The notes under the pieces were generated by a model that worked only from the letters and a program-made list of their open reading frames with translations, was not told the DNA's origin and did no database searches. A stretch of DNA of 64,000 bases, from positions 12,983 through 76,982 of IMG/VR virus record IMGVR_UViG_3300034272_001354; one strand, written 5' to 3'. A program made the position numbers and the translations under genes. The DNA is from a virus. How positions within the stretch are numbered: position 1 is the stretch's first letter; each line of letters opens with the position of its first letter. Positions 12,418 to 45,721 of this stretch are shown here, piece by piece.

Positions 12418-13020
12418 ATGAGAATTGGTATAGAAATTAATGGAGTGTTAAGAGATACTTTAGGAAAAATTGAACAAACTTATCAGAAATTTTTAATCGA
12501 TAAAACTGATGGTATTGAAGACGACGAGTCATTTGAATATAAAATGACCTACCCGATAAATAGTTTAACATTAAACGACCATTTTTCATTTCCGGATGAT
12601 GATGAATTATATTCATTTTTATATGAAGAATTTGCTATGGAAATTTTTGGTCACGCACAATCCTCAGAATATAATACATTTATTGATTTAAACGAAATTT
12701 ATATATCTTTAAGAGATAATCACGATTTATTAATTGTTTCGGATGAAATAGGAAAATCAAAACCCGCATCATTATTCTTTTTATCAAAATTTGGATGTCA
12801 ATTAGAAAAAGTAAAATTTTATAGTAATTCAACAATTAATTCAATGTGGGATGAATTAGATATTTTACTTACATCCAATCCAGCCTTATTATTGGATTAT
12901 CCGTCAGATAAAATATTAATAAAATATGAAACGGATTATAATGAGAATATTACCACAATCCATTCTATAAAATCTATAAAAGAATTGGATGATAAATTAA
13001 AACAAATTTTAGAATGTTAA
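12418..13020 (+). CDS. HAD-fold 5'-nucleotidase-like protein, catalytic motif altered
   Basis: MRIGIEINGVLRD resembles the NT5C IxIDxDGVL motif, with E/N in place of D/D. Confidence 0.5.
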   Translation: MRIGIEINGVLRDTLGKIEQTYQKFLIDKTDGIEDDESFEYKMTYPINSLTLNDHFSFPDDDELYSFLYEEFAMEIFGHAQSSEYNTFIDLNEIYISLRDNHDLLIVSDEIGKSKPASLFFLSKFGCQLEKVKFYSNSTINSMWDELDILLTSNPALLLDYPSDKILIKYETDYNENITTIHSIKSIKELDDKLKQILEC

Positions 13021-21929: not shown

Positions 21930-22607
21930 ATGAAAAGAGTAGTTAAATTATCAGAATCTAAATTAACTGAATTAGTTAAACGAATTATGTCTGAACAAGA
22001 TAGTGAAAGATATATGTTTTTTAGTAATTTAGAACAAATTCATAGACAAACAGGTTTATTATTAGAATTAAATAAAAACACTGTTGAAGGTATTTTAGAT
22101 GGTGGACACGATTGGGCTCAAGACCACGTATCAACCGCAAAAGAAAGCCTTGACCAAGTTTTTGATTTTATGATGAATGAAACTAAAAATGAAGACAATA
22201 TAACTGTTTTAGAACAAGATTATTCTTCAGACACTGAAAGACCTACAAGTGACAGAGAACGTCAAGTAAAGTCCTTATTTGGTGATAAATATGGACAGTA
22301 TATTCCTAACGATGTTATTAGATATATAAGAAAGAGTCCTGCTCAATTCATTAAGAAAATCTATCAAATGTACGGAGACAAGGTTTATGATTATCTTGAT
22401 AAAGCAAAAAGTCAAAGTAATGATGAGGTAGTTTCTGAAGGTAAAAAGAAACCCGGTACTAAATTATGTGCTCGTGGTAAAGCGGCTGCTAAATCAAAAT
22501 TTAAAGTTTATCCTTCAGCTTATTCAAACGGCTTTGCGGTTCAAGTTTGTAAAGGAACTAAAGCAGGGTTAGACGGTCAAAAGAGGTGTTCATCACCATA
22601 TTGTTAA
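21930..22607 (+). CDS. putative internal head protein
   Basis: N-terminal KLSESKLTELVKRIMSEQ leader; basic C-terminal KFKVYPSAYSN domain. Confidence 0.5.
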   Translation: MKRVVKLSESKLTELVKRIMSEQDSERYMFFSNLEQIHRQTGLLLELNKNTVEGILDGGHDWAQDHVSTAKESLDQVFDFMMNETKNEDNITVLEQDYSSDTERPTSDRERQVKSLFGDKYGQYIPNDVIRYIRKSPAQFIKKIYQMYGDKVYDYLDKAKSQSNDEVVSEGKKKPGTKLCARGKAAAKSKFKVYPSAYSNGFAVQVCKGTKAGLDGQKRCSSPYC

Positions 22608-24120: not shown

Positions 24121-24128
24121 TACATTTG
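24121..24128 (+). promoter_or_regulatory. Bacteroidota sigma70 -7 element
   Basis: TACATTTG 17 nt before the ATG at 24146. Confidence 0.55.
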
Positions 24129-24145
24129 TAAAAAATATTTATATT

Positions 24146-24400
24146 ATGAAAAAATTATTAATTATCTTGTTATTATTAGTTAGTGGTTTGTCGTTTTCTC
24201 AAGAAAAGAAAAAAGTTTCAACCAAAAAAATAGACCAAACCGTTACTCAAAAAATGGACTCCTTATCTAAAGTTTATAAAGTAAAAGTTATTGGCTCATA
24301 TAAAATAACCCATAACGATGTTTATGTTGAAGGAATTGTTTATGAAGACAAATCAGGAAATGTCCACGATAAAGAAACTAAAAGAATTAAAATTAATTAA
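24146..24400 (+). CDS. small secreted protein (Sec signal peptide)
   Basis: MKKLLIILLLLVSGLSFS|QE, a Bacteroidota-type signal peptide with Gln at +1. Confidence 0.7.
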   Translation: MKKLLIILLLLVSGLSFSQEKKKVSTKKIDQTVTQKMDSLSKVYKVKVIGSYKITHNDVYVEGIVYEDKSGNVHDKETKRIKIN

Positions 24401-24410
24401 AAAAGGGTGA

Positions 24411-25541
24411 TTAAATACAACCTCCCTCTATTTTAAATCCTGTTGACCCCATTCCAGGACCCCCAATAGGTGCATAAACAAAAAATAAATTATTACCTTT
24501 ACTAGTATCATATACTAATTCATATGGTGTAGTTCTTTTTTCATAAAGTACGAACTCTCTAACACCATTATTATATTGCTCTAATAAATTAACGAATCCT
24601 AAAGAAACTTCACCAGTACCTGTATTAGCTTGTAATATTGACTTTAATTTTTTCAAATCATTTTTGTTAATTAAATCTAATGAAATATTTTTTAATTTTT
24701 CGTTTTTAAAAATCAATGAAACTAATTCATCTATTGATGAAACATTTTTAGTAATTATTTTACTACCACTAACTGCAGGGGATTTTTGGTTATATATTTT
24801 AGTTAAACTATCAACCCACGCAGGTATATAATTTATTATATCATCCAAATATAATTCTGTAGATACATATCCGGTGTCTAATGTTATTTGTTTTTGAGTA
24901 TCAGTAACAATTAATCTATCAGGCATTGTTCCCGTATCAAAACTCAATTTACCTTTATCATTTAAGTCATTTTGATATTTTGAAGGTAAAATTGCAATAT
25001 AATTATTCGATTTAGAACCTTGAACTCCTTCATAGTCAATGTTAAAGTTACACTTCTCAGTAGATTTTTCTGCGGATAAATTTAAAGTTACATATTGATA
25101 TTTTGTATAGTCAGGGTGTTTAGAACCTTTGGTTTCATCCCACTCAGGACCTTGAGCTCCTAAATTATTAATTTTAATAGATATTTTATCACCTAATTTT
25201 GATTTTATATATTTTTCAACTTCCGAAGCTCTTAATTTGGATAAATCTCCTGAGTTTAACCCTACACCTTCATTTGGAACTTTCGATTCTGATGAATTAA
25301 TCACGATAGTGTTAAATGAACCTTTACCGGATTTTAAATAATCATTAATTTGTTTTATTGCATTATCAATTTCAGTAGTATTATTTAACTCATATTCACC
25401 ACTAGGAAACGAATTTGAAATATTAAATTTTATAGGTTCTGTAATATCTTCTTTAATTAAATAAAGTTTTTTAGTAGCACTTTCATGAAGTCCTAAAATT
25501 CTATTTTTTTCTTCACTTGAAATTTCAAATAAATTTTTCAT
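24411..25541 (-). CDS. protein with leader motif and divergent OmpA-like domain
   Basis: Start MKNLFEISSEEKNRILGLHE at 25541; FPSGEYEL...SSES...LSKLRASEVEKYI resembles OmpA_C. Confidence 0.55.
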   Translation of the reverse strand: MKNLFEISSEEKNRILGLHESATKKLYLIKEDITEPIKFNISNSFPSGEYELNNTTEIDNAIKQINDYLKSGKGSFNTIVINSSESKVPNEGVGLNSGDLSKLRASEVEKYIKSKLGDKISIKINNLGAQGPEWDETKGSKHPDYTKYQYVTLNLSAEKSTEKCNFNIDYEGVQGSKSNNYIAILPSKYQNDLNDKGKLSFDTGTMPDRLIVTDTQKQITLDTGYVSTELYLDDIINYIPAWVDSLTKIYNQKSPAVSGSKIITKNVSSIDELVSLIFKNEKLKNISLDLINKNDLKKLKSILQANTGTGEVSLGFVNLLEQYNNGVREFVLYEKRTTPYELVYDTSKGNNLFFVYAPIGGPGMGSTGFKIEGGCI

Positions 25542-25571
25542 AATTTTTCTTTTAATATAAATATAAGATAA

Positions 25572-25602
25572 AAAAAAAGAGGACAAATATTTGTCCTCTT
25601 TT
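25572..25602. terminator. terminator of the capsid gene
   Basis: AAAAAGAGGACAAA-TA-TTTGTCCTCTTTTT. Confidence 0.8.
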
Positions 25603-25623
25603 TGGTATATCATAAGATATTGA

Positions 25624-27540
25624 TTATCTCAATTCTCTTAAGTCAAATGTTCTAACACCATCAACGGTAATTCTTCCGTAAAAACGGTTATTTACCATCT
25701 TTTTCGCGTAACGAGTCATTATACCTTTAATCGGTGTAAAGTTGAATGGGTTGTACATTGTAGGTGTTAATTGTAATGGTACATACGGAGCGTAAATGTA
25801 TCCTGTGTCTAACAATGATGTTCCTTTGTGTCCAATTAACACTTGGTTAGCTGGGAAGTAAGGGTCACGGTAAACTTGGTAACGACCTGCTAATGTACCT
25901 ACTCTTTCAATACCCATGTTGTATTGGTCTTGCTCAGGAGACGCATTAGATACGTGGAAGTACTCTAAATCATCAAAGATAGCTGAAACTTCAGAAGAAA
26001 CAACAATCCAGTTTGCTCCACCTCTTAATGTAGATTTGTGGATTTGTGCAGACAATTGGTTGATTGCTGTAATTAATGTTTGGTTCCAATCTTTTTGAGT
26101 ATAAGAAGTTGTTTGAGAAATTCTTCTCCAACCATTGTAATCCCAACGTAAGTTCCATGCTGCACCTTTACGTAAATCTCTTAAGATTTCACGGTCGATT
26201 TCAGCCGCAACTTGTTCAGATAATAAAGCTGTTAATTCAGCTTCAGCATCGATGTTGTGGAAAGCCGCAACGTCTTGAGCTAACTCAGGAGACCATTGTG
26301 CTCTTAATTTTCTTTCTGTAACAGATACAGTAACTGAATCTAAATCGAAAGAAACCTCACCGATTTTATCTTCAAATTCTAACTCTTCGTAACGTCTGAA
26401 AGCCGCTGCGAATGAAGTTCCTGATACCGCAGTTTCGATAGTAGTACCTGTGTAACCATCTAAAGATGTAGAATCACAATCAGCACATACCGGACAAGAT
26501 AAATCAACTTCTAACCAAATACATCCATCAGCGTCACAAACATTTTTGAATGAACCACCGTTACCTGTATTAGATGCTGTACCCGCTGGGTTACCTGAAG
26601 GGAAGTAAGTTTGAGTAGTATTACCATATTTCACAATACCTCTACCATAGATTTGAGTCACAACTCTAAATAATAAAGAACCTGTACTAACTGTACATGG
26701 TGAAGTTGAAGAAACAGTTAAACCATTTCCTGTGTAAACGATTAAGTCAGATAAGAATGATTCAGTATCCATTTCGTTACCATCAGGTCCGATTAATTTT
26801 CCTGCACCTGTATCAGCAAAACCACACATTTTAATGATAACTTTTCTTGTGTTACCTGAAGCAATAACTGCTGCTCCATCAGTTGTTCCTGAAATGTTAG
26901 CATCAACTAAAACTCCACCTGTCCATTTTTGGATAGTTGTAGTAGCAGTGATTGCTGACCAACGACCTTTAGAATAATCAAATAATCCTGGAGGGTCTAA
27001 TTGAGCCTCATTTCCTTCATAGAATAAATCATAAAGATTTTTTTCGTATACAGGGTTATAAGTTCCTGAACCTGTAGTGTAACCTGCATTTGGATTACCA
27101 CCTGTACCGTTAGGTGAAGGTAATGTACCATCATTGTAGTTACCCGGAGCTCCAACAGGTGCATAGTGCTCACCTGAATATTGTCCTGCAATACCATCTT
27201 TATATCCTTGGATTTTTGGTACAAAGTAGAATAATTTACCGATTGGTAAGTTCATAGCTTGTACAGAAACGATGTCATTCGCTAATAATTTAGAGAATAC
27301 TCTTCTTACGATAGGAAATACAACAGTTTCGAATGAACCTGAAGACCCGTCAGAAGTTGCTTCGTTTATTAAGAAAGACGCTTGGTTCTCATATAACTGA
27401 GCTACGTTTTCTCTTAAGTGACCTTTAAGACCTTCTAGAAATCCTAATTTGTCCCATTTATTAATTGTGTCCTCTTTAATAACTTTAAGGTGTTTTAACC
27501 CGATGTTACCAACTAGACCTGATTCTAATAATGCTCCCAT
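25624..27540 (-). CDS. major capsid protein, T4 gp23-like
   Basis: VSVQAMNLPIGKLFY, RKLRAQWSPELAQD, AEIDREIL, GYIYAPYVPL, TPIKGIMTRYA. Confidence 0.95.
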   Translation of the reverse strand: MGALLESGLVGNIGLKHLKVIKEDTINKWDKLGFLEGLKGHLRENVAQLYENQASFLINEATSDGSSGSFETVVFPIVRRVFSKLLANDIVSVQAMNLPIGKLFYFVPKIQGYKDGIAGQYSGEHYAPVGAPGNYNDGTLPSPNGTGGNPNAGYTTGSGTYNPVYEKNLYDLFYEGNEAQLDPPGLFDYSKGRWSAITATTTIQKWTGGVLVDANISGTTDGAAVIASGNTRKVIIKMCGFADTGAGKLIGPDGNEMDTESFLSDLIVYTGNGLTVSSTSPCTVSTGSLLFRVVTQIYGRGIVKYGNTTQTYFPSGNPAGTASNTGNGGSFKNVCDADGCIWLEVDLSCPVCADCDSTSLDGYTGTTIETAVSGTSFAAAFRRYEELEFEDKIGEVSFDLDSVTVSVTERKLRAQWSPELAQDVAAFHNIDAEAELTALLSEQVAAEIDREILRDLRKGAAWNLRWDYNGWRRISQTTSYTQKDWNQTLITAINQLSAQIHKSTLRGGANWIVVSSEVSAIFDDLEYFHVSNASPEQDQYNMGIERVGTLAGRYQVYRDPYFPANQVLIGHKGTSLLDTGYIYAPYVPLQLTPTMYNPFNFTPIKGIMTRYAKKMVNNRFYGRITVDGVRTFDLRELR

Positions 27541-29493: not shown

Positions 29494-30219
29494 TTAATAT
29501 CCTAAATAATCGTTTAATTTTTTCATTAAGTCAAGTGATTTATTTCCTGAATCACCAACATGTCTTTCAATACTCATTTTTTTCTCTTCTTCTAAGTTCT
29601 CGTCATACAGATGTTTGTCATCTTTATTTAAGAATAGATACGCTCCCGGAGTTGAAGGTGAGGACACCAAGTCAAAACAAATTAATTCAAAATCGTCTTG
29701 TACTTCATTTTGTTCACCAATCTTTTTAAGAGAACCTACACCTCTTGACGATATACCTAAAGTAACACCTTGTCTTAAGTAATTTGCTGCCAAATCTCCT
29801 TTGGTTGAACAAATACCTCTTTCGTGGTATCCCGGTGATGTCAATAATTTAATCTTTCCCATTAGGACATTACCTTCCCACCATACTTCGGTGATTGCGT
29901 GAGAAACTCTATCTAAATCAATTAAAGATGATTCCGGGTGATTTAACTCTGAAAGAGCTGTACCCTTTTTAATCATTTTTTTATAATTATCAGCTTCTCT
30001 TTTTAATATACGTTCAGGGTATAATCGACCATTTCTATTTGGTGTATCATATTTTTGTAATACAGCATAAAATTCAAATGGTTTTGAGTGGTCTAACATT
30101 TCATTAGATTCTCTTATTAATGTTTCGTTACGATTATCCTTTGGATTAATATATCCGGCATCGTATTCAACTAATATACCTTTTCCTGATTCGTTCGGTT
30201 GTAATATTCTTAAACTCAT
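29494..30219 (-). CDS. prohead protease, T4 gp21-like
   Basis: NRNGRLYP, ELNHP, GISSRGVGS, DLVSSPSTPGA. Confidence 0.92.
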   Translation of the reverse strand: MSLRILQPNESGKGILVEYDAGYINPKDNRNETLIRESNEMLDHSKPFEFYAVLQKYDTPNRNGRLYPERILKREADNYKKMIKKGTALSELNHPESSLIDLDRVSHAITEVWWEGNVLMGKIKLLTSPGYHERGICSTKGDLAANYLRQGVTLGISSRGVGSLKKIGEQNEVQDDFELICFDLVSSPSTPGAYLFLNKDDKHLYDENLEEEKKMSIERHVGDSGNKSLDLMKKLNDYLGY

Positions 30220-31737: not shown

Positions 31738-33606
31738 TCAATCATTTAAGATTTTATCCAATTCTTTTTCCATATCACCTAAAGAATTTCTTGCTCGAGA
31801 TAAATCAATGTAAGAATCGTCTTCAGTTAGATTACCACTTTCCAATAAGATATTCAAATTATCTCGTTTGACTGATTCAGGAGTTATTTCAGCTTCACCA
31901 CCCGGTGCCGGTGCTCCACCCGGTTCAGGTGCTCCACCCGGTTCAGGTTCTCCACCTAAGTCAAGTCCTCCACCTAAGTCAGATTCAAGACCTCCTCCAC
32001 CTCCTCCACCAGGTGGTGGGGCAGGAGCAGCCGCTCCAACGGCCGTAGTTCCGGATTTACTCGCGTATAATTTATCTATAGTATCAAATACACCCGTATG
32101 AGTAATTATGGTTGCGGTATTAGTTAATTCCGCACCAACCGCTTTTTCAATACGTTGTTGTTGTAAATCTAATTTAATTTCTTCATCAGAGAATCCTAAT
32201 ACGTGTTTCTTAGCCCATGTAACAGATACCGGAGCGATACCTTCGATAGCCGCAACAGCATCTTTATACAATAAAATTTTCTCTTTCCAAATATCAATTT
32301 TTAATAAATCTGCTTGAGATGATGGGTTTGTAAGAGCCAATGTAAAGTTTGACAATTCATCCTCAAATCCTAATAAGAATAAATGAATAATTGCAACTTT
32401 ATTTAATTCGGCAATCATAGATTTTTGAATTCTATTAATTGTTCTTGCGAAACGAATATCCATTAAAGATAAATTTTTACCATCACCCGTTACTTCCTCA
32501 AAACCTAAAAACGCTTTAGGAACACGAAGTGCTGTTAATAATTTCTTTTGGATATATTCAATATCGGCAATCTCCGCCAAATTTTGTGCTCCCGGTAAGG
32601 TATCAATTGGACTTGGTGCCGCAGGGTCACGAACAGGAATAAAGTAATCTTGGTCAACAGCCATTTGATTAAATCTCATATCTACATTCCCTGTTTGAGA
32701 ATCAACCACTTGACTTCTTTTAAATTTGTTAGCCACACGTTGTACATATGGTTCAACATCTTTATCGTCCATATTACCAACATAAACTTTAAATACACGT
32801 CTTTCAGGAGCTCTTGAAGTTCTATAAATCAACATCGCATCTTCTGAAAGTAATAATTGTTTCCAAATACGTCTCGCTTTCTCCAACATAGAAGTACCAT
32901 AAGGAAGTTTTCTATCATCACCTAATAATCTAAAATGGGCAATCTCCCATGAATTGAATTCCATGTCTTTAATTTTCCATTTGAAACGTAATCCTTTACT
33001 ATCCGCAGGTTCTTCAACATTTGCTGATTTCGCAGCCATACCTCTCTCCAAACGTTCTATTTCAATGTTTGGTAATTGCATACACCCAACAATGCCTTTT
33101 TCCGCATCCAATTTTAGATACACGAAGTTATCTCCATATTTACAAGTATTTCTTGTCCACATAGGTAAATTAGTATTTAAATCTAATACGTTGTTAAATA
33201 AGTCAGTTAAGATTCCTTTAATTCTTTTTGATTCAGAATAAATCTGTAACATATATCCATTTTGGTCAACAGTTGTTGATTCTTCACCATAGATATCCAA
33301 AGCGGCAGAAATTTCAGGAGTATACTCCATCGATTCATAATCATAAAATGAAGCTAAACGAGTTGGTTCATAATATACCGCTTGAGTATATAAATTACTT
33401 TCAATTTTAGTCCATTGATTGGCTAGATAATAAGTTTGTTGTGCCTGTAATTTTTCTCTCTCGTATTCGGCTTTAGACGTGGTTTTTAATAATTCCTTCT
33501 TATCTAACTGATATACGGGATAATCTTGATTCAATAACGAATTTGGTCCAAATGCTTTGGATAACCTTTGCCAAACTGTTAAATCATTATTTTGATTGTT
33601 TTCCAT
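31738..33606 (-). CDS. portal protein, T4 gp20-like
   Basis: EDAMLIYRTSRAPERRVF, DYFIPVR, IDTLPGAQNL, ALRVP. Confidence 0.95.
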   Translation of the reverse strand: MENNQNNDLTVWQRLSKAFGPNSLLNQDYPVYQLDKKELLKTTSKAEYEREKLQAQQTYYLANQWTKIESNLYTQAVYYEPTRLASFYDYESMEYTPEISAALDIYGEESTTVDQNGYMLQIYSESKRIKGILTDLFNNVLDLNTNLPMWTRNTCKYGDNFVYLKLDAEKGIVGCMQLPNIEIERLERGMAAKSANVEEPADSKGLRFKWKIKDMEFNSWEIAHFRLLGDDRKLPYGTSMLEKARRIWKQLLLSEDAMLIYRTSRAPERRVFKVYVGNMDDKDVEPYVQRVANKFKRSQVVDSQTGNVDMRFNQMAVDQDYFIPVRDPAAPSPIDTLPGAQNLAEIADIEYIQKKLLTALRVPKAFLGFEEVTGDGKNLSLMDIRFARTINRIQKSMIAELNKVAIIHLFLLGFEDELSNFTLALTNPSSQADLLKIDIWKEKILLYKDAVAAIEGIAPVSVTWAKKHVLGFSDEEIKLDLQQQRIEKAVGAELTNTATIITHTGVFDTIDKLYASKSGTTAVGAAAPAPPPGGGGGGGLESDLGGGLDLGGEPEPGGAPEPGGAPAPGGEAEITPESVKRDNLNILLESGNLTEDDSYIDLSRARNSLGDMEKELDKILND

Positions 33607-40254: not shown

Positions 40255-40262
40255 TATCTTTG
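40255..40262 (+). promoter_or_regulatory. Bacteroidota sigma70 -7 element
   Basis: TATCTTTG upstream of ATG 40288. Confidence 0.65.
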
Positions 40263-40287
40263 TATAAATATTAAAACATCAACAGAT

Positions 40288-40677
40288 ATGAAAAAATTAA
40301 TCACCATTATTCTTTTTATTTTTATTTCAAGTTTATCTTTTGGTCAACATGCAATAAAAGCCGGTAAATATTATGAATTAGATAAAGTGTTTACACGAGA
40401 TTCCATATCAGTTAAATTATTAATGGATACCTACAAATTAGATATCACTAAATTATCCGCTGTTAAATTTTTTGGGGAATTTGAGTTATCTGACAATTTA
40501 CATCATAATTACTCTCATTCAGAATACACATATATTTTAGAGAAAAAAACTGGAGTAGTTACATTAAAATCACTTAATTATAATGAAAATCTATTAAAAC
40601 TTAATAAATACGTTATGGTTTTTTGTTTTGACGATAATACTACAGAGAAAAAAACTATCACCATTAAAATATTTTAA
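40288..40677 (+). CDS. small secreted protein (Sec signal peptide)
   Basis: MKKLITIILFIFISSLSFG|Q. Confidence 0.7.
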   Translation: MKKLITIILFIFISSLSFGQHAIKAGKYYELDKVFTRDSISVKLLMDTYKLDITKLSAVKFFGEFELSDNLHHNYSHSEYTYILEKKTGVVTLKSLNYNENLLKLNKYVMVFCFDDNTTEKKTITIKIF

Positions 40678-40680
40678 TAA

Positions 40681-40707
40681 AAAAAAGGGTCTTTAAGACC
40701 CTTTTTT
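40681..40707. terminator. bidirectional terminator between convergent genes
   Basis: AAAAAAGGGTCTT-T-AAGACCCTTTTTT inverted repeat. Confidence 0.75.
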
Positions 40708-41757
40708 AGTTATTTGTGGAAGTTTAATAATTAATCTTCTATTAGGTGCCGTTTGATTTTCATCTGTTACGTCAGGCCATTTTTTACCCTTAGCAAATTG
40801 GTCAGTTTCTCCAATACCTTTAGGTATAAAATTTAATTTAATTCCCGGTAAACTATTTTTAAGAAGTGAAGCAATTGTTTCTGCTCTTTTTTTAGATAAA
40901 TCCATATTATAATCTTTTCTTTTTTGACCTGTTTTAAGTTTACCTTCAGGGTCTTCATCGATAGATGCTGATGATATTACTTCTACATCTCCTGTAGCAT
41001 CAGAATAATTAGTTTTAATTGATTTGATAAAATCTTTAAATTCTTGTTTAGCCTCATCTGTTAAATTAGTCTCATTAAATCTAAATGGACTTTCAATATT
41101 TAATTCAAATGGTGTATCTTCTGGTGTGTCTTCAGGTGTTTCAGGTGTAGGTTTATTTGAAAAATATTTAGCACTAGCACCAGGAAACAATTGTATTAAA
41201 ATTCCATATCCTCCTTTTTTAACATACATTACCGGAGATATTGTATCATCTTTAGATTCTTCATATCTACCCTTTAATAAACTTAAGTCTTGTTTTATTA
41301 TCTTTGCAGTGTAAAGTGTTGGTGAACCAACCTTTGATTTGTCGGTTGGAGATGGGAGTCTTCGGTCATTTGGTGCCATTGCAACAAATTTATAATCCAT
41401 ATTAGCATTTTGTAATGGTACTAAAGGCTCACCACCTACCGAAGATGAATAAAGGTCAGGCCAATATTTGTCAGTAAGTTCAAAATTTAAACCCCAACCA
41501 TAATCTGAAACTAATTCTTTTGTTTTATAATTAACTTTAAAATTATATAAATCACCATTTACATATTTCCACTGTTGTCCATCAGCAACATCAACAATTG
41601 AATATAAGTAATTTTGATTAATTTTAAAATAAAATTCACTTCCTAATTTATAAAAAGATTCATCAATTTCTTCTTCTTTTTCTTCTTGTTCTTGAAGAAC
41701 TTTTTTAACTAAATTGTATAATTCTGATTCTGTTAGTTTTATAATTTTTTTTCCCAT
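40693..41757 (-). CDS. protein with leader motif and C-terminal OmpA-like peptidoglycan-binding domain
   Basis: Leader KLTESELYNLVKKVLQEQ; FRFNETNL...YNMDLSKKRAETIA...GIGET...NRRLII. Confidence 0.75.
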   Translation of the reverse strand: MGKKIIKLTESELYNLVKKVLQEQEEKEEEIDESFYKLGSEFYFKINQNYLYSIVDVADGQQWKYVNGDLYNFKVNYKTKELVSDYGWGLNFELTDKYWPDLYSSSVGGEPLVPLQNANMDYKFVAMAPNDRRLPSPTDKSKVGSPTLYTAKIIKQDLSLLKGRYEESKDDTISPVMYVKKGGYGILIQLFPGASAKYFSNKPTPETPEDTPEDTPFELNIESPFRFNETNLTDEAKQEFKDFIKSIKTNYSDATGDVEVISSASIDEDPEGKLKTGQKRKDYNMDLSKKRAETIASLLKNSLPGIKLNFIPKGIGETDQFAKGKKWPDVTDENQTAPNRRLIIKLPQITKKGS

Positions 41758-43232: not shown

Positions 43233-45278
43233 ATGACAGAATCTATGGATGGTGGAAGTAACGGTGGAAATAAAGCAGTTAAAACTGATTCATCAACTCC
43301 CGTATTAGACAATTTTAGTAGAGATTTAATAAAACTTGCCGAAGAGGGTAAACTTGACCCGGTGGTTGGTAGAGAAAGAGAAATCACTCGAATTGCACAA
43401 ATCCTTTCACGTAGAAAGAAAAATAACCCAATTATTATTGGTGAACCTGGTTGTGGTAAAACCGCAATTGTTGAAGGTCTTGCCATTATGATTTATAATG
43501 GGGATTGTCCAAGAAACTTAATGGACAAAAGAATTGTGTCATTAGATATGACATCAATTGTTGCGGGAACAAAATATCGTGGACAATTTGAAGAAAGAAT
43601 GAAAGTCATTATCGAAGAACTTCAAAACGAACCAAACATCATTGTATTCATTGACGAAATCCACACAATCGTTGGAGCAGGTAATTCATCAGGTTCAATG
43701 GACGCGTCGAATATCTTCAAACCAGCACTTGCTCGTGGAGAGATTCAATGTGTTGGGGCAACCACTTTGGATGAATACAGAAAAAACTTTGAGAAAGACG
43801 GAGCGTTAGAAAGACGTTTCCAAAAAGTTGTTGTGGATGCTGCAACCAAAGAAGAGACATTAATCATCCTTAAAAATGTAAAAGACAAATACGAGAACTA
43901 CCACAAGGTAACTTATACTGATGAAGTATTGTCTGTATGTGTTGATTTAGCAGACCGTTATATCACAGATAGAGAATTCCCGGACAAAGGATTCGACATT
44001 ATTGATGAGGTTGGAGCGAGAAGTCAGGTAGATGTGAAAATGCCAGATTCAATTGAAAAATTGAAACTTCAAGCGTCAAACATTAAACAAGAAAAAATTG
44101 ATGTAGTAAAACAACAACGATACGAGGAGGCGGCAAACCTACGTGATAAAGAAAAACGTATCTTAACCAAACTTGAAGCTGAAAAGAAAAAGTTTGAAGA
44201 AGAACTTCTTACACACAAAAAAGAAATCACTTTGGATTTAGTTTATGAAGTGGTTTCCAATATGACAAAAATTCCAGTTACCAAATTAAATGCTGATGAA
44301 ACCAAACTATTGTCAGAGATGGAAACAAATCTATCTGATAAAGTTATTGGACAATCTGAAGCAGTTTCAAAGATTGCAAAATCAATCCGTAGAAACAGAA
44401 TTGGTATTAAAGACCCGAACAAACCAATCGGTTCATTCATCTTTTTAGGTTCAACAGGTGTTGGTAAAACATACTTGGCAAAACAACTAGCGAAACAAAT
44501 GTTCGGTAGCGAAGATAATATGATTCGTGTGGATATGTCCGAGTACCAAGAAAAACACACCATTTCAAGATTAATTGGAGCACCTCCGGGATACGTTGGA
44601 TACGATGAAGGTGGACAATTAACCGAACAAGTGAAAAACAAACCTTATTCTGTAATTCTATTTGATGAAATTGAGAAAGCAAACAAAGATATCTTTTCAA
44701 CACTTCTTCAAGTATTAGACGATGGTCACCTTACCGATGGTATGGGGAGAAAGATTAACTTCAAAAATTGTGTCATCATTATGACATCAAATGTTGGAGC
44801 TAAAAAATTACAAGATTTTGGTTCAGGGGTTGGTTTTAAAACAGGAGCTAGTTCTTATGTAGAAGAAGAATACAAACGTGAGACACTTAAAAAAGAACTT
44901 AAGAAATTCTTTACTCCGGAATTCTTAAACAGAATTGATGAGGTTGTTATCTTTAACTCTTTGGTTAAAGAAGACGTTAAGAAAATCGTTAAATTGGAAT
45001 TGGACAAACTATCTAAAAGATTGGTTGGATTGAAATATAACATAACATTTGATGAAAGTATTTTAGAACTAATCTCTGAAGTTGGATTTGATGAAACCTA
45101 CGGGGCAAGACCAATCAAAAGAGCTATCCAAGATAAGATTGAGGATTTTGTATCTGAAGAGATTATCAAAGGAAATATGGTGGAGGGTGTTCCATACACC
45201 CTTGTATCCGTAGAGAAAGAAGTGGTGGTCAAAACAGAACCTACCAAAAAGACAAGAAAGAAAAAAGAGGACAATTAG
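43233..45278 (+). CDS. clpC: ClpC-like AAA+ unfoldase lacking the N-domain
   Basis: Two NBDs ([14 protein letters not shown]; [15 protein letters not shown]), short UVR-type M-domain, VGF ClpP-binding loop; TACTTTTG promoter at 43169. Confidence 0.85.
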
Positions 45279-45298: not shown

Positions 45299-45721
45299 TT
45301 ATTTTTCAAAACTCATAAGAAACCTTTCAAATTCTTGTAAAATATTAGGTTTTGACAATAAAGGAAACTTTTTAGGTTCAATTGCTAATCCCATTCCGTG
45401 AATTTTATCTTTAGTTCCTACCTGACTAGGTTCTTTAACTTTTTTGGTTTTAACAATAGCATAATCAGGATTAAAAGTAACAAATAACGTTAATTTTTTT
45501 TCAGGTATATTTTTCATAAATTTTAATTCAGAACCCCCTGTTTCTATCGAATAATTAAGTTTTCTCAAAACTGAGTCTAACATTTGAGGTGTTACCTTTT
45601 TTTCTTTTTTAGGAGTAGGAGTTGGTACTCCCTGTTCAGAAATTACATTTTTTTTACCTGAGTGCATCTCAAGGATTCTATTTTTCTCATCTTGAGAAAT
45701 GTCATTAAATAAATTTTTCAT
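45299..45721 (-). CDS. hypothetical protein with MKNLF..IS..EKNRIL leader
   Basis: Same N-terminal leader as 24411..25541. Confidence 0.7.
   Translation of the reverse strand: MKNLFNDISQDEKNRILEMHSGKKNVISEQGVPTPTPKKEKKVTPQMLDSVLRKLNYSIETGGSELKFMKNIPEKKLTLFVTFNPDYAIVKTKKVKEPSQVGTKDKIHGMGLAIEPKKFPLLSKPNILQEFERFLMSFEK

Follow-up and report, generated by a model that had tools for sequence, protein, structure and literature searches.

A convergent two-gene cassette lies beside the major capsid gene in a 64,000-nucleotide stretch of viral DNA (hereafter the window), which covers positions 12,983 to 76,982 of the 76,982-bp IMG/VR contig IMGVR_UViG_3300034272_001354 (G+C content of about 30%) and is present in lake metagenomes. 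One gene encodes a protein with an N-terminal leader, an OmpA-like domain, and a variable C-terminal domain (termed cargo 1); the gene facing it encodes a small protein with a signal peptide (termed partner 1, P1). This cassette is real, strongly conserved, and polymorphic, and a functional coupling of cargo and partner is likely. A preliminary description of the same DNA had reported a host-type promoter and a signal-peptide gene converging on a gene with a late motif, a leader, an OmpA-like segment, and a unique domain, and we found all of these elements where it had placed them (Table 1). The explanation we favor, while putting it slightly short of an even chance, is that cargo 1 is a head-targeted protein in the style of T4 that acts in the periplasm and is matched with an early periplasmic neutralizer.

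In order to follow the two genes across relatives, gene neighborhoods were read from IMG/VR loci rather than from the 120 protein homologues. Linkage, on which the preliminary description had staked its proposal, held up: the pairing of cargo 1 with P1 is kept in 28 distinct pairs with cargo identities of 28-80%, all of them arranged tail-to-tail, with gaps ranging from +19 bp down to a 32-bp overlap. By clustering, eight variable-domain families correspond approximately one-to-one to eight or nine unrelated partner families, and the OmpA-like domain is common to all. Across 27 phages, the pairwise identities of cargo and partner are correlated (Spearman rho 0.70; Mantel test, 0/2000), and the value for cargo and the adjacent capsid protein in the same phages is 0.03. 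For the subset of 18 phages that carry the ORF flanking the partner side, rho is 0.81 between capsid protein and ORF and 0.53 between cargo and partner, and the identity of the ORF relates to that of the cassette with rho values of -0.05 and 0.07. Neither flank tracks the cassette, and cargo and partner therefore co-vary independently of both flanking genes.

The locus is also as polymorphic as had been proposed. Among phages with capsid proteins at least 95% identical, cargo alleles span 22-100% identity; one relative (L029) matches the window at 97% in the capsid protein and 100% in the flanking ORF, with 33% in the cargo and 37% in the partner. When the window is compared with backbone-identical phages, DNA identity is 90-100% up to the capsid stop codon, 77-80% over the leader, 40-55% over the cargo body and the mature partner, 72-75% over the partner signal peptide, and, starting at the partner promoter, 88-100%. 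Alleles are exchanged between two conserved handles, namely the leader at the cargo end and the signal peptide with its promoter at the partner end. In four relatives (L021, L022, L024, and L028) the OmpA-like part is 53-75% identical to that of the window, and a change of the C-terminal domain (21-41%) goes with one of the partner (25-32%); no recombinant of the converse kind was seen. The unit of exchange is thus the variable domain together with the partner: the putative trafficking part is conserved, and the variable C-terminal domain is swapped with the adjacent exported gene.

A second pair with the same architecture occurs at 40255-41757, again in agreement with the preliminary description. 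The two cargos resemble each other in the OmpA-like part alone (31% over 132 amino acids, E 4e-4), and in cargo 2 the Pfam OmpA model passes its cut-off (4.1e-7, 30.7 bits). The partners are unrelated past the signal peptide. Profile alignment with hhalign among P1, P2, a family of 138 amino acids, and CAP-domain partners gave no alignment beyond the signal peptides, so the partner families are not one divergent family. In relatives, pair 2 stands directly after the capsid gene and its cargo bears the other leader type; the pair has moved as a unit, switching its leader and retaining its partner.

We then asked how general the association is. A degenerate DNA pattern for the leader-A sequence [ND]RIL.LHE.ATK retrieved 114 IMG/VR stretches encoding 80 distinct leader-A proteins, which were scored with an OmpA-domain hidden Markov model built from the family. 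Within the OmpA-like class, 35 have an exported neighbor (all convergent, one of them rescued by hand), one has none, and three were unreadable; for the other leader-A proteins the corresponding numbers are 10 (5 convergent and 5 co-directional), 27, and 4. A convergent exported partner is thus found for 35 of the 36 readable OmpA-like proteins, and an exported neighbor for 10 of 37 others. The small leader-A proteins (104-135 amino acids) have no exported neighbor; the one that was scanned, of 128 amino acids, gave a weak PG_binding_1 match. Partners accompany those leader-A members in which a variable domain, some 200 residues in length, is added.

Several sister cassettes have recognizable contents. 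In one, a leader-A protein with a TseH-like effector domain of type VI secretion (T6SS) (3.3e-8) stands opposite a secreted Peptidase_C92 amidase (9e-29); in another, a leader-A LysM protein (2.4e-16) faces a secreted zincin-like (M54/M10) peptidase; in further ones, OmpA-like cargos lie opposite CAP-domain proteins (1e-6). A cargo variant of 507 amino acids has a Cys-rich C-terminal domain.

The joint exchange of both genes suggests a matched pair of an injected protein and its neutralizer. An unlikely alternative is that two independent envelope-directed accessory genes merely share a hypervariable island and are co-exchanged through the nearest conserved recombination stretches. The semi-conserved handles at the island borders suit such hitch-hiking, as do the great heterogeneity of the partners, with enzymes among them, the exported neighbors (some co-directional) of non-OmpA leader-A genes, and the occurrence of the cargo family without P1 in distant phages. 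The one-sided recombinants argue against it, as does pair 2, which kept its partner through a change of position and leader. The near one-to-one mapping of cargo and partner families, the contrast between OmpA-like and other leader-A proteins in the census, and the overlap of the convergent 3' ends by 4-32 bp in many relatives likewise speak for coupling.

Cargo 1 starts at the leader Met, as do the cargos of relatives; a longer ORF reaching 25613 was rejected as the start, since it merely reads the capsid terminator hairpin in frame. An AlphaFold2 model built on 63 homologues has a predicted local distance difference test score (pLDDT) of 83.5. Residues 31-158 adopt an OmpA fold (VIA Z 11.2, root-mean-square deviation 3.1, 115 residues aligned to 4b62); 25 of the 28 VIA matches with Z of at least 8 belong to the OmpA/MotB/Pal fold, including TagL and TssL (T6SS wall anchors), MotB, Pal, and OmpA, and Foldseek relates the domain to OmpA, MotB, and Pal with a probability of 1.00. 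The Pfam OmpA match (PF00691; E 3e-4, 21.5 bits) falls under the gathering cut-off of 27.2. Within the motif LSKLRASEV, L100 and R104 are invariant, and the invariant E85 may stand in for the peptidoglycan-contacting Asp, given that an Asp and an Arg are expected around LSxxRAxxV. By its modeled fold, the domain would bind peptidoglycan.

The C-terminal domain (about 210 residues) is modeled with pLDDT above 90. Its invariant residues are P207-D208-R209, D222, and C375, and C164 is present in at least 90% of the sequences; C164 and C375, both conserved, are the sole Cys residues of cargo 1. The family is small, with 35 representative clusters in 1.84 billion proteins, nearly all of the same architecture; one of the 35, represented by a protein of 1674 amino acids (P0123) with Ig-like repeats that matched in 12 short stretches, was judged spurious. 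Searching the ESM Atlas with the domain returned only unnamed viral clusters at 0.85-0.86, under the useful level.

Two types of leader, A and B, each 20-30 residues long and N-terminal, are found on these proteins. In different phages the cargo-1 body carries either leader A (MIKQTWNI.EDEKNRILNLHESATK or MKNLFEISSEEKNRILNLHESATK) or leader B (MKTIILTE.Q[IV]K..I...), and the cargo-2 body, which has leader B in the window, bears leader A in relatives, so that the two are interchangeable on one body. The model of cargo 1 has a helix over residues 9-27 of the leader region and a pLDDT below 50 over residues 19-34. The sequence [LIV]xE with its Glu at residue 20-21 occurs in 64 of the 80 leader-A proteins, for a background of 0.009 per residue; in leader-B proteins (n = 16), the Glu is at position 21 in 10 and at position 27 in 5. 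Cargo 1 has L/I-X-E propeptide endings, as motif matches only, at L18-H19-E20 and I29-K30-E31.

These features are reminiscent of the capsid-targeting concept of T4, in which gp21 cuts after L/I-X-E and unrelated proteins enter the head by virtue of a 10-residue targeting sequence (PMC9026906, PMC3012670). On the minus strand of the window, the portal, the gp21-family protease, and the major capsid protein make up a head module of the T4 type, so that the phage of cargo 1 encodes both a T4-type prohead and such a protease, and the cargo 1 gene stands inside this module, immediately behind the capsid gene. With the gene for the gp21-family protease 4 kb distant, the leaders are best read as capsid-targeting; the leader may be a targeting signal that this protease removes, and cargo 1 is probably in the virion.

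Lysis offers another setting for these proteins. A late protein accumulating in the cytoplasm could, like an accessory to an endolysin, reach the wall only through holin lesions, with the partner tuning or delaying its action in the manner of an antiholin or a lysis-inhibition function. Like endolysins, the cargo appears to be late, lacks an export signal, and has wall-binding modules, and one beta-sandwich match of the C-terminal domain, weak at Z 7.1, is XepA from the PBSX lysis cassette. We nevertheless regard this as improbable: the gene lies in the head module after the capsid gene and not in a lysis cassette, the partner has a host-type promoter unlike the late class, and two interchangeable leaders with protease sites, conserved on many unrelated bodies, would have no role.

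P1 consists of a signal peptide (residues 1-18, 24146-24199), a Lys-rich linker, and one helix with a three-stranded sheet, modeled by AlphaFold2 with pLDDT above 90 over residues 31-84. The signal peptide is of the Sec/signal peptidase I type, with a Gln at +1 and no lipobox, and Q19 is conserved in at least 90% of 25 homologues, in agreement with the Q-rule for signal peptides of Bacteroidetes (PMC5837995). The maximal hydropathy over 15 residues is 2.65 for P1 versus 0.99 for cargo 1, in which no export signal was found. P1 has no family assignment in Pfam, PHROG, PADLOC, or NCBIfam, and neither the two partners P1 and P2 nor the variable domains had an informative match in PHROGs, PADLOC, NCBIfam, or a PDB sequence-profile search. 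Among the matches listed for the P1 signal-peptide pattern, all lay on contigs in which the pair had been seen already, which says nothing about orphan copies of P1. A spanin-like reading of the pair was dropped, the partner not being a lipoprotein and the genes being convergent with different promoter classes.

The two genes differ in their promoter motifs. In relatives, a TAnnTTTG element begins 22-36 nt ahead of the start codon in 31 of the 39 distinct regions that precede partner genes, the other 8 partners following directly behind an upstream gene, and occurs in 1 of 73 distinct regions upstream of leader-bearing genes. Conversely, a TATTTATA-type late motif precedes 60 of the 73 distinct leader-bearing genes, starting 17-32 nt (mostly 21-24) from the ATG, and in the window the late motif is also found 5' of head and baseplate genes. 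The meanings "late" and "early or host-type" are suggested by the genes downstream of each motif. On these motifs, P1 is predicted to be expressed early and exported to the periplasm. The late-type motif is present in 16 of the 39 partner regions as well, where in many cases it shares nucleotides with the host-type element (composite TATTTATATTTG), and the partner may therefore be made throughout infection, both early and late. A Bacteroidota host is indicated by the TAnnTTTG elements together with signal peptides that end in ...SFS|Q or ...SFG|Q. In four lake metatranscriptomes, the contigs span the conserved capsid gene and scarcely extend into the cassette, and are uninformative on timing.

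No terminator or hairpin was found between cargo 1 and P1 (a 10-bp gap, 24401-24410; fold z-score -0.25), and a shared bidirectional terminator was rejected for pair 1. Without a terminator, and with the 3' ends overlapping in many relatives, a collision of early with late transcription would be unavoidable, and the convergent 3' ends may give rise to antisense or interference effects.

Table 1 Features of the window and of related loci.
Feature	Position	Strand	Remarks
Leader-B protein	21930..22607	+	225 aa; after baseplate genes, without partner
ORF just upstream of P1	23879..24109	+	76 aa; conserved flank, partner side
Promoter element of P1	24121..24128	+	TACATTTG; Bacteroidota-type -7 element (TAnnTTTG), 18 nt before ATG
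Late-type motif overlapping P1 promoter	24135..24143	+	ATATTTATA; 2 nt before ATG, function doubtful
Partner P1	24146..24400	+	84 aa; begins MKKLLIILLLLVSGLSFS|QEKK
Cargo 1, whole gene	24411..25541	-	376 aa; starts at leader Met (MKNLF)
Cargo 1, variable C-terminal domain	24414..25049	-	residues 165-376; beta-sandwich with helical insert
Cargo 1, OmpA-like domain	25062..25439	-	residues ~35-160; peptidoglycan-binding type, by fold and sub-threshold Pfam match
Cargo 1, leader type A	25482..25541	-	MKNLFEISSEEKNRILGLHE; ends L-H-E (E20), second conserved I-K-E at E31
Late-type promoter motif of cargo 1	25556..25564	-	ATATTTATA
Intrinsic terminator of capsid gene	25574..25603	-	13-bp stem, then T run
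Major capsid protein, T4 gp23 family	25624..27540	-	Pfam Gp23 1.1e-74; conserved cassette flank
Prohead protease, T4 gp21 family	29494..30219	-	Peptidase_S77, Pfam 6.9e-24
Portal	31738-33606	-	Portal_T4, Pfam 3.4e-77
Promoter element of partner 2	40255..40262	+	TATCTTTG
Partner P2	40288..40677	+	129 aa; signal peptide ...LSFG|QHA
Cargo 2	40693..41757	-	354 aa; leader B (KLTESELYNLVKKVLQEQ), unique N-domain, C-terminal OmpA domain
Third leader-A protein	45299..45721	-	140 aa; converges on ClpC-like ATPase gene 43233-45278
Sister cassette	L107:5459-6586	-	with L107:4857-5456 (+)
Sister cassette	L165:4565-5980	-	with L165:3943-4554 (+)
Sister cassette	L191:2897-3334	-	
Sister cassette	L113:4203-4718	-	
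Gene between capsid gene and first cassette in relatives	L038:3284-3970, L045:3290-3970, L062:368-1048, others		226-228 aa

In the favored explanation, T4-like jumbo phages of Bacteroidota would have in this locus a mobile cassette of two genes. The leader would work like the T4 capsid-targeting sequence, bringing the cargo into the prohead, where the gp21-type protease would cut the leader off after L-H-E. At infection, the mature cargo would exit the virion and act in the periplasm, held on the peptidoglycan by its OmpA-like domain, with the variable C-terminal domain acting on some envelope target. The partner, presumably transcribed soon after infection from its host-type promoter, would be a small Sec-exported periplasmic protein specific for the variable domain, with which it co-varies. 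It would neutralize the same-allele cargo of later virions, and the infected cell would be protected, either by resistance to lysis from without or by superinfection exclusion. Given that the cargo is devoid of an export signal and the partner is exported, the two can meet only if the cargo enters from the virion or at lysis. We counted as periplasm-type content the OmpA-like fold, LysM, the TseH-like domain, the weak PG_binding_1 match, and the two conserved Cys residues, and the leader-tagged class as a whole looks cell-wall-directed.

The effector/immunity-like relation put forward in the preliminary description is thus borne out in part, through linkage, joint exchange, and a partner that follows the variable rather than the OmpA-like domain. 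A number of observations weigh against the favored explanation. Because neighboring genes are inherited jointly by default, binding is not proved by co-variation alone. Distant cargo-1 homologues (L025, L026, L086, L090, and L091) have no adjacent P1, and the partner is not universally needed, since in one relative with a complete genome of 173 kb the cargo family is present and a P1 homologue (E ≤ 0.01) is not. Fold searches with P1 gave no match (Foldseek E of at least 0.17, VIA Z of at most 4.2), and hence no known inhibitor; those with the variable domain gave no informative match, the best (Z 8.6) being a generic beta-sandwich and none a toxin or enzyme fold. The CAP, C92 amidase, and zincin-like peptidase partners of the sister cassettes are atypical as immunity proteins. 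The T4 capsid-targeting sequence is MKTYQEFIAE, to which the leaders bear no likeness by eye, and the T4 internal proteins take a cytoplasmic route, in anti-restriction, where the bodies described here carry cell-wall-binding modules that point to the periplasm. Finally, cargo 1, cargo 2, and the leader had no tblastn match in 50,697 phage records of GenBank, and no cultured relative was found. A broader claim, that T4-like phages of Bacteroidota run their own polymorphic, allele-specific effector-immunity system, with virions bringing wall-anchored, leader-tagged effectors to the periplasm, infected cells secreting the matching antidote, and cassette exchange sorting otherwise identical phages into exclusion or compatibility groups, is possible, but on this evidence we lean against it.

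The same evidence would fit a partner that switches off or removes the founding virion's own cargo after entry, keeping the envelope intact, and the secreted peptidases and amidases of the sister cassettes could degrade or reverse a cargo. Such an internal antidote is indistinguishable by sequence data from the neutralization of later virions; we find it quite improbable in that allele polymorphism among otherwise identical phages is more easily explained by conflict between phages than by internal control. Very improbable is a purely regulatory arrangement of functionally unrelated proteins, in which the tail-to-tail overlap acts as an early/late switch by colliding transcription or antisense RNA: the lack of a terminator and the overlapping 3' ends would allow it, but it leaves unexplained the partner families that track the variable domain, the co-directional partners of some cassettes, and the association with wall-binding cargos.

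Further features of the window and its relatives are as follows. The third leader-A protein of the window has neither a detected OmpA domain nor an exported partner, and the leader-B protein behind the baseplate genes has a Cys-containing C-terminal motif matching phrog_27331 (1.3e-13). Distant cargo-1 homologues (P0121, P0137, P0139, and P0144, and those of loci L086, L090, and L091) lack a neighboring P1-type gene and are 400-450 amino acids long with an extended N-terminus, in which a conserved, moderately hydrophobic sequence, ...LLTAAxLTxLMxNPxFAxA (residues ~55-80), could be membrane-interacting or signal-like. In a leader-B group (L025 and L026), the cargo-1 homologue adjoins a divergent gene for 278-279 amino acids (L025:3029-3868 and L026:3081-3917, both minus strand), which may encode an endolysin, as its start has the appearance of the PG_binding_1 type; many neighboring genes in this phage group start with leader-B-like sequences. 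In many relatives, the capsid gene and the first cassette are separated by a gene that is absent from the window and appears to encode a helix-turn-helix protein (...TISEKTGISKPTILRVLKENG...). The capsid protein contains, near residue 60 (residues ~55-62), the sequence ...SFLINE|ATSDG, resembling the T4 gp23 maturation site, ...SFLTE|AEIGG, which would fit a conserved hydrophobic-x-Glu specificity of the protease. The closest phage in GenBank is Flavobacterium phage vB_FspM_immuto, with a likeness confined to the capsid gene (71% nucleotide identity).

If the favored explanation is true, it would extend both the T4 capsid-targeting leader and exclusion by binding of a virion protein to abundant and almost unstudied freshwater and marine phages, merging the two in a mobile, matched, and highly polymorphic cassette akin to bacterial effector-immunity pairs. 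It would give a handle on the roles of head-internal proteins outside E. coli phages, on superinfection in Bacteroidota phages, and on why near-identical phages differ at a hot spot beside the capsid gene. The broader and less probable claim of exclusion groups would amount to a viral counterpart of T6SS kin discrimination. The make-up of the cassette, in which a leader, a module that binds the wall, and a variable domain are faced by a gene for an exported protein, also provides a simple annotation rule for many "hypothetical" genes of metagenomic phages.

Among known systems, the closest to the cargo are the internal proteins IPI, IPII, IPIII, and Alt of T-even phages, which carry a capsid-targeting sequence and are processed by gp21 (PMC9026906, PMC3012670). 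As with these, T4-type head genes including a gp21-family protease are present, expression appears to be of the late type, and a short conserved N-terminal leader ending in hydrophobic-x-Glu is found on many unrelated, fast-evolving bodies. Unlike them, the proteins described here have leaders of 20-30 residues that are of two types, and every large body is accompanied by a cognate gene for an exported partner.

For the partner, precedents are found in T4 Spackle, which inhibits the virion tail lysozyme gp5 (PMC7677548), and in T4 Imm, which binds the tape-measure protein (bioRxiv 10.64898/2026.03.06.709160). By analogy, P1 would be another small, early phage protein of the envelope or periplasm that protects the cell, against lysis from without and second infection, by binding a virion-delivered protein of a related incoming phage. 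P1 does not appear to belong to the Spackle family: Spackle folds as a helical bundle, whereas P1 is modeled with one helix and a three-stranded sheet, with no Pfam, PHROG, PADLOC, or fold-search match. The paired T4 genes, moreover, do not lie next to each other and show no polymorphism as a pair, and the target here would be a leader-tagged OmpA-like protein. In P22, SieA acts against the ejection proteins gp16 and gp20, with no type-specific targeting found (PMC10883804); it too is a phage-encoded envelope protein of several sequence types that blocks entry by way of ejected virion proteins, as is conceivable for P1, but unlike in this cassette its gene is not adjacent to those of the ejection proteins.

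The arrangement of the pair recalls T6SS effector-immunity pairs acting in the periplasm, such as TseH-TsiH of Vibrio cholerae (PMC4453574), to the domain of which one sister cassette has a counterpart. In both cases, an effector without a signal peptide would be delivered by a contractile machine and met by the product of an adjacent gene with a signal peptide, and, as in polymorphic toxin loci, a conserved N-terminal trafficking part is joined to a swappable C-terminal domain with a cognate neighbor. Unlike the T6SS pairs, the cassette resides in a lytic-type phage beside the capsid gene, its genes are convergent with different promoter classes, the variable domain of cargo 1 has no recognized toxin fold, and some partners are enzymes or CAP-domain proteins. 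The preliminary description had not recognized the system as described. Spackle and Imm are precedents for the concept, and no account of cognate cassettes of this kind in phages came up in literature searches; the new element would be the cognate, adjacent, and cassette-swapped form of a known exclusion concept.

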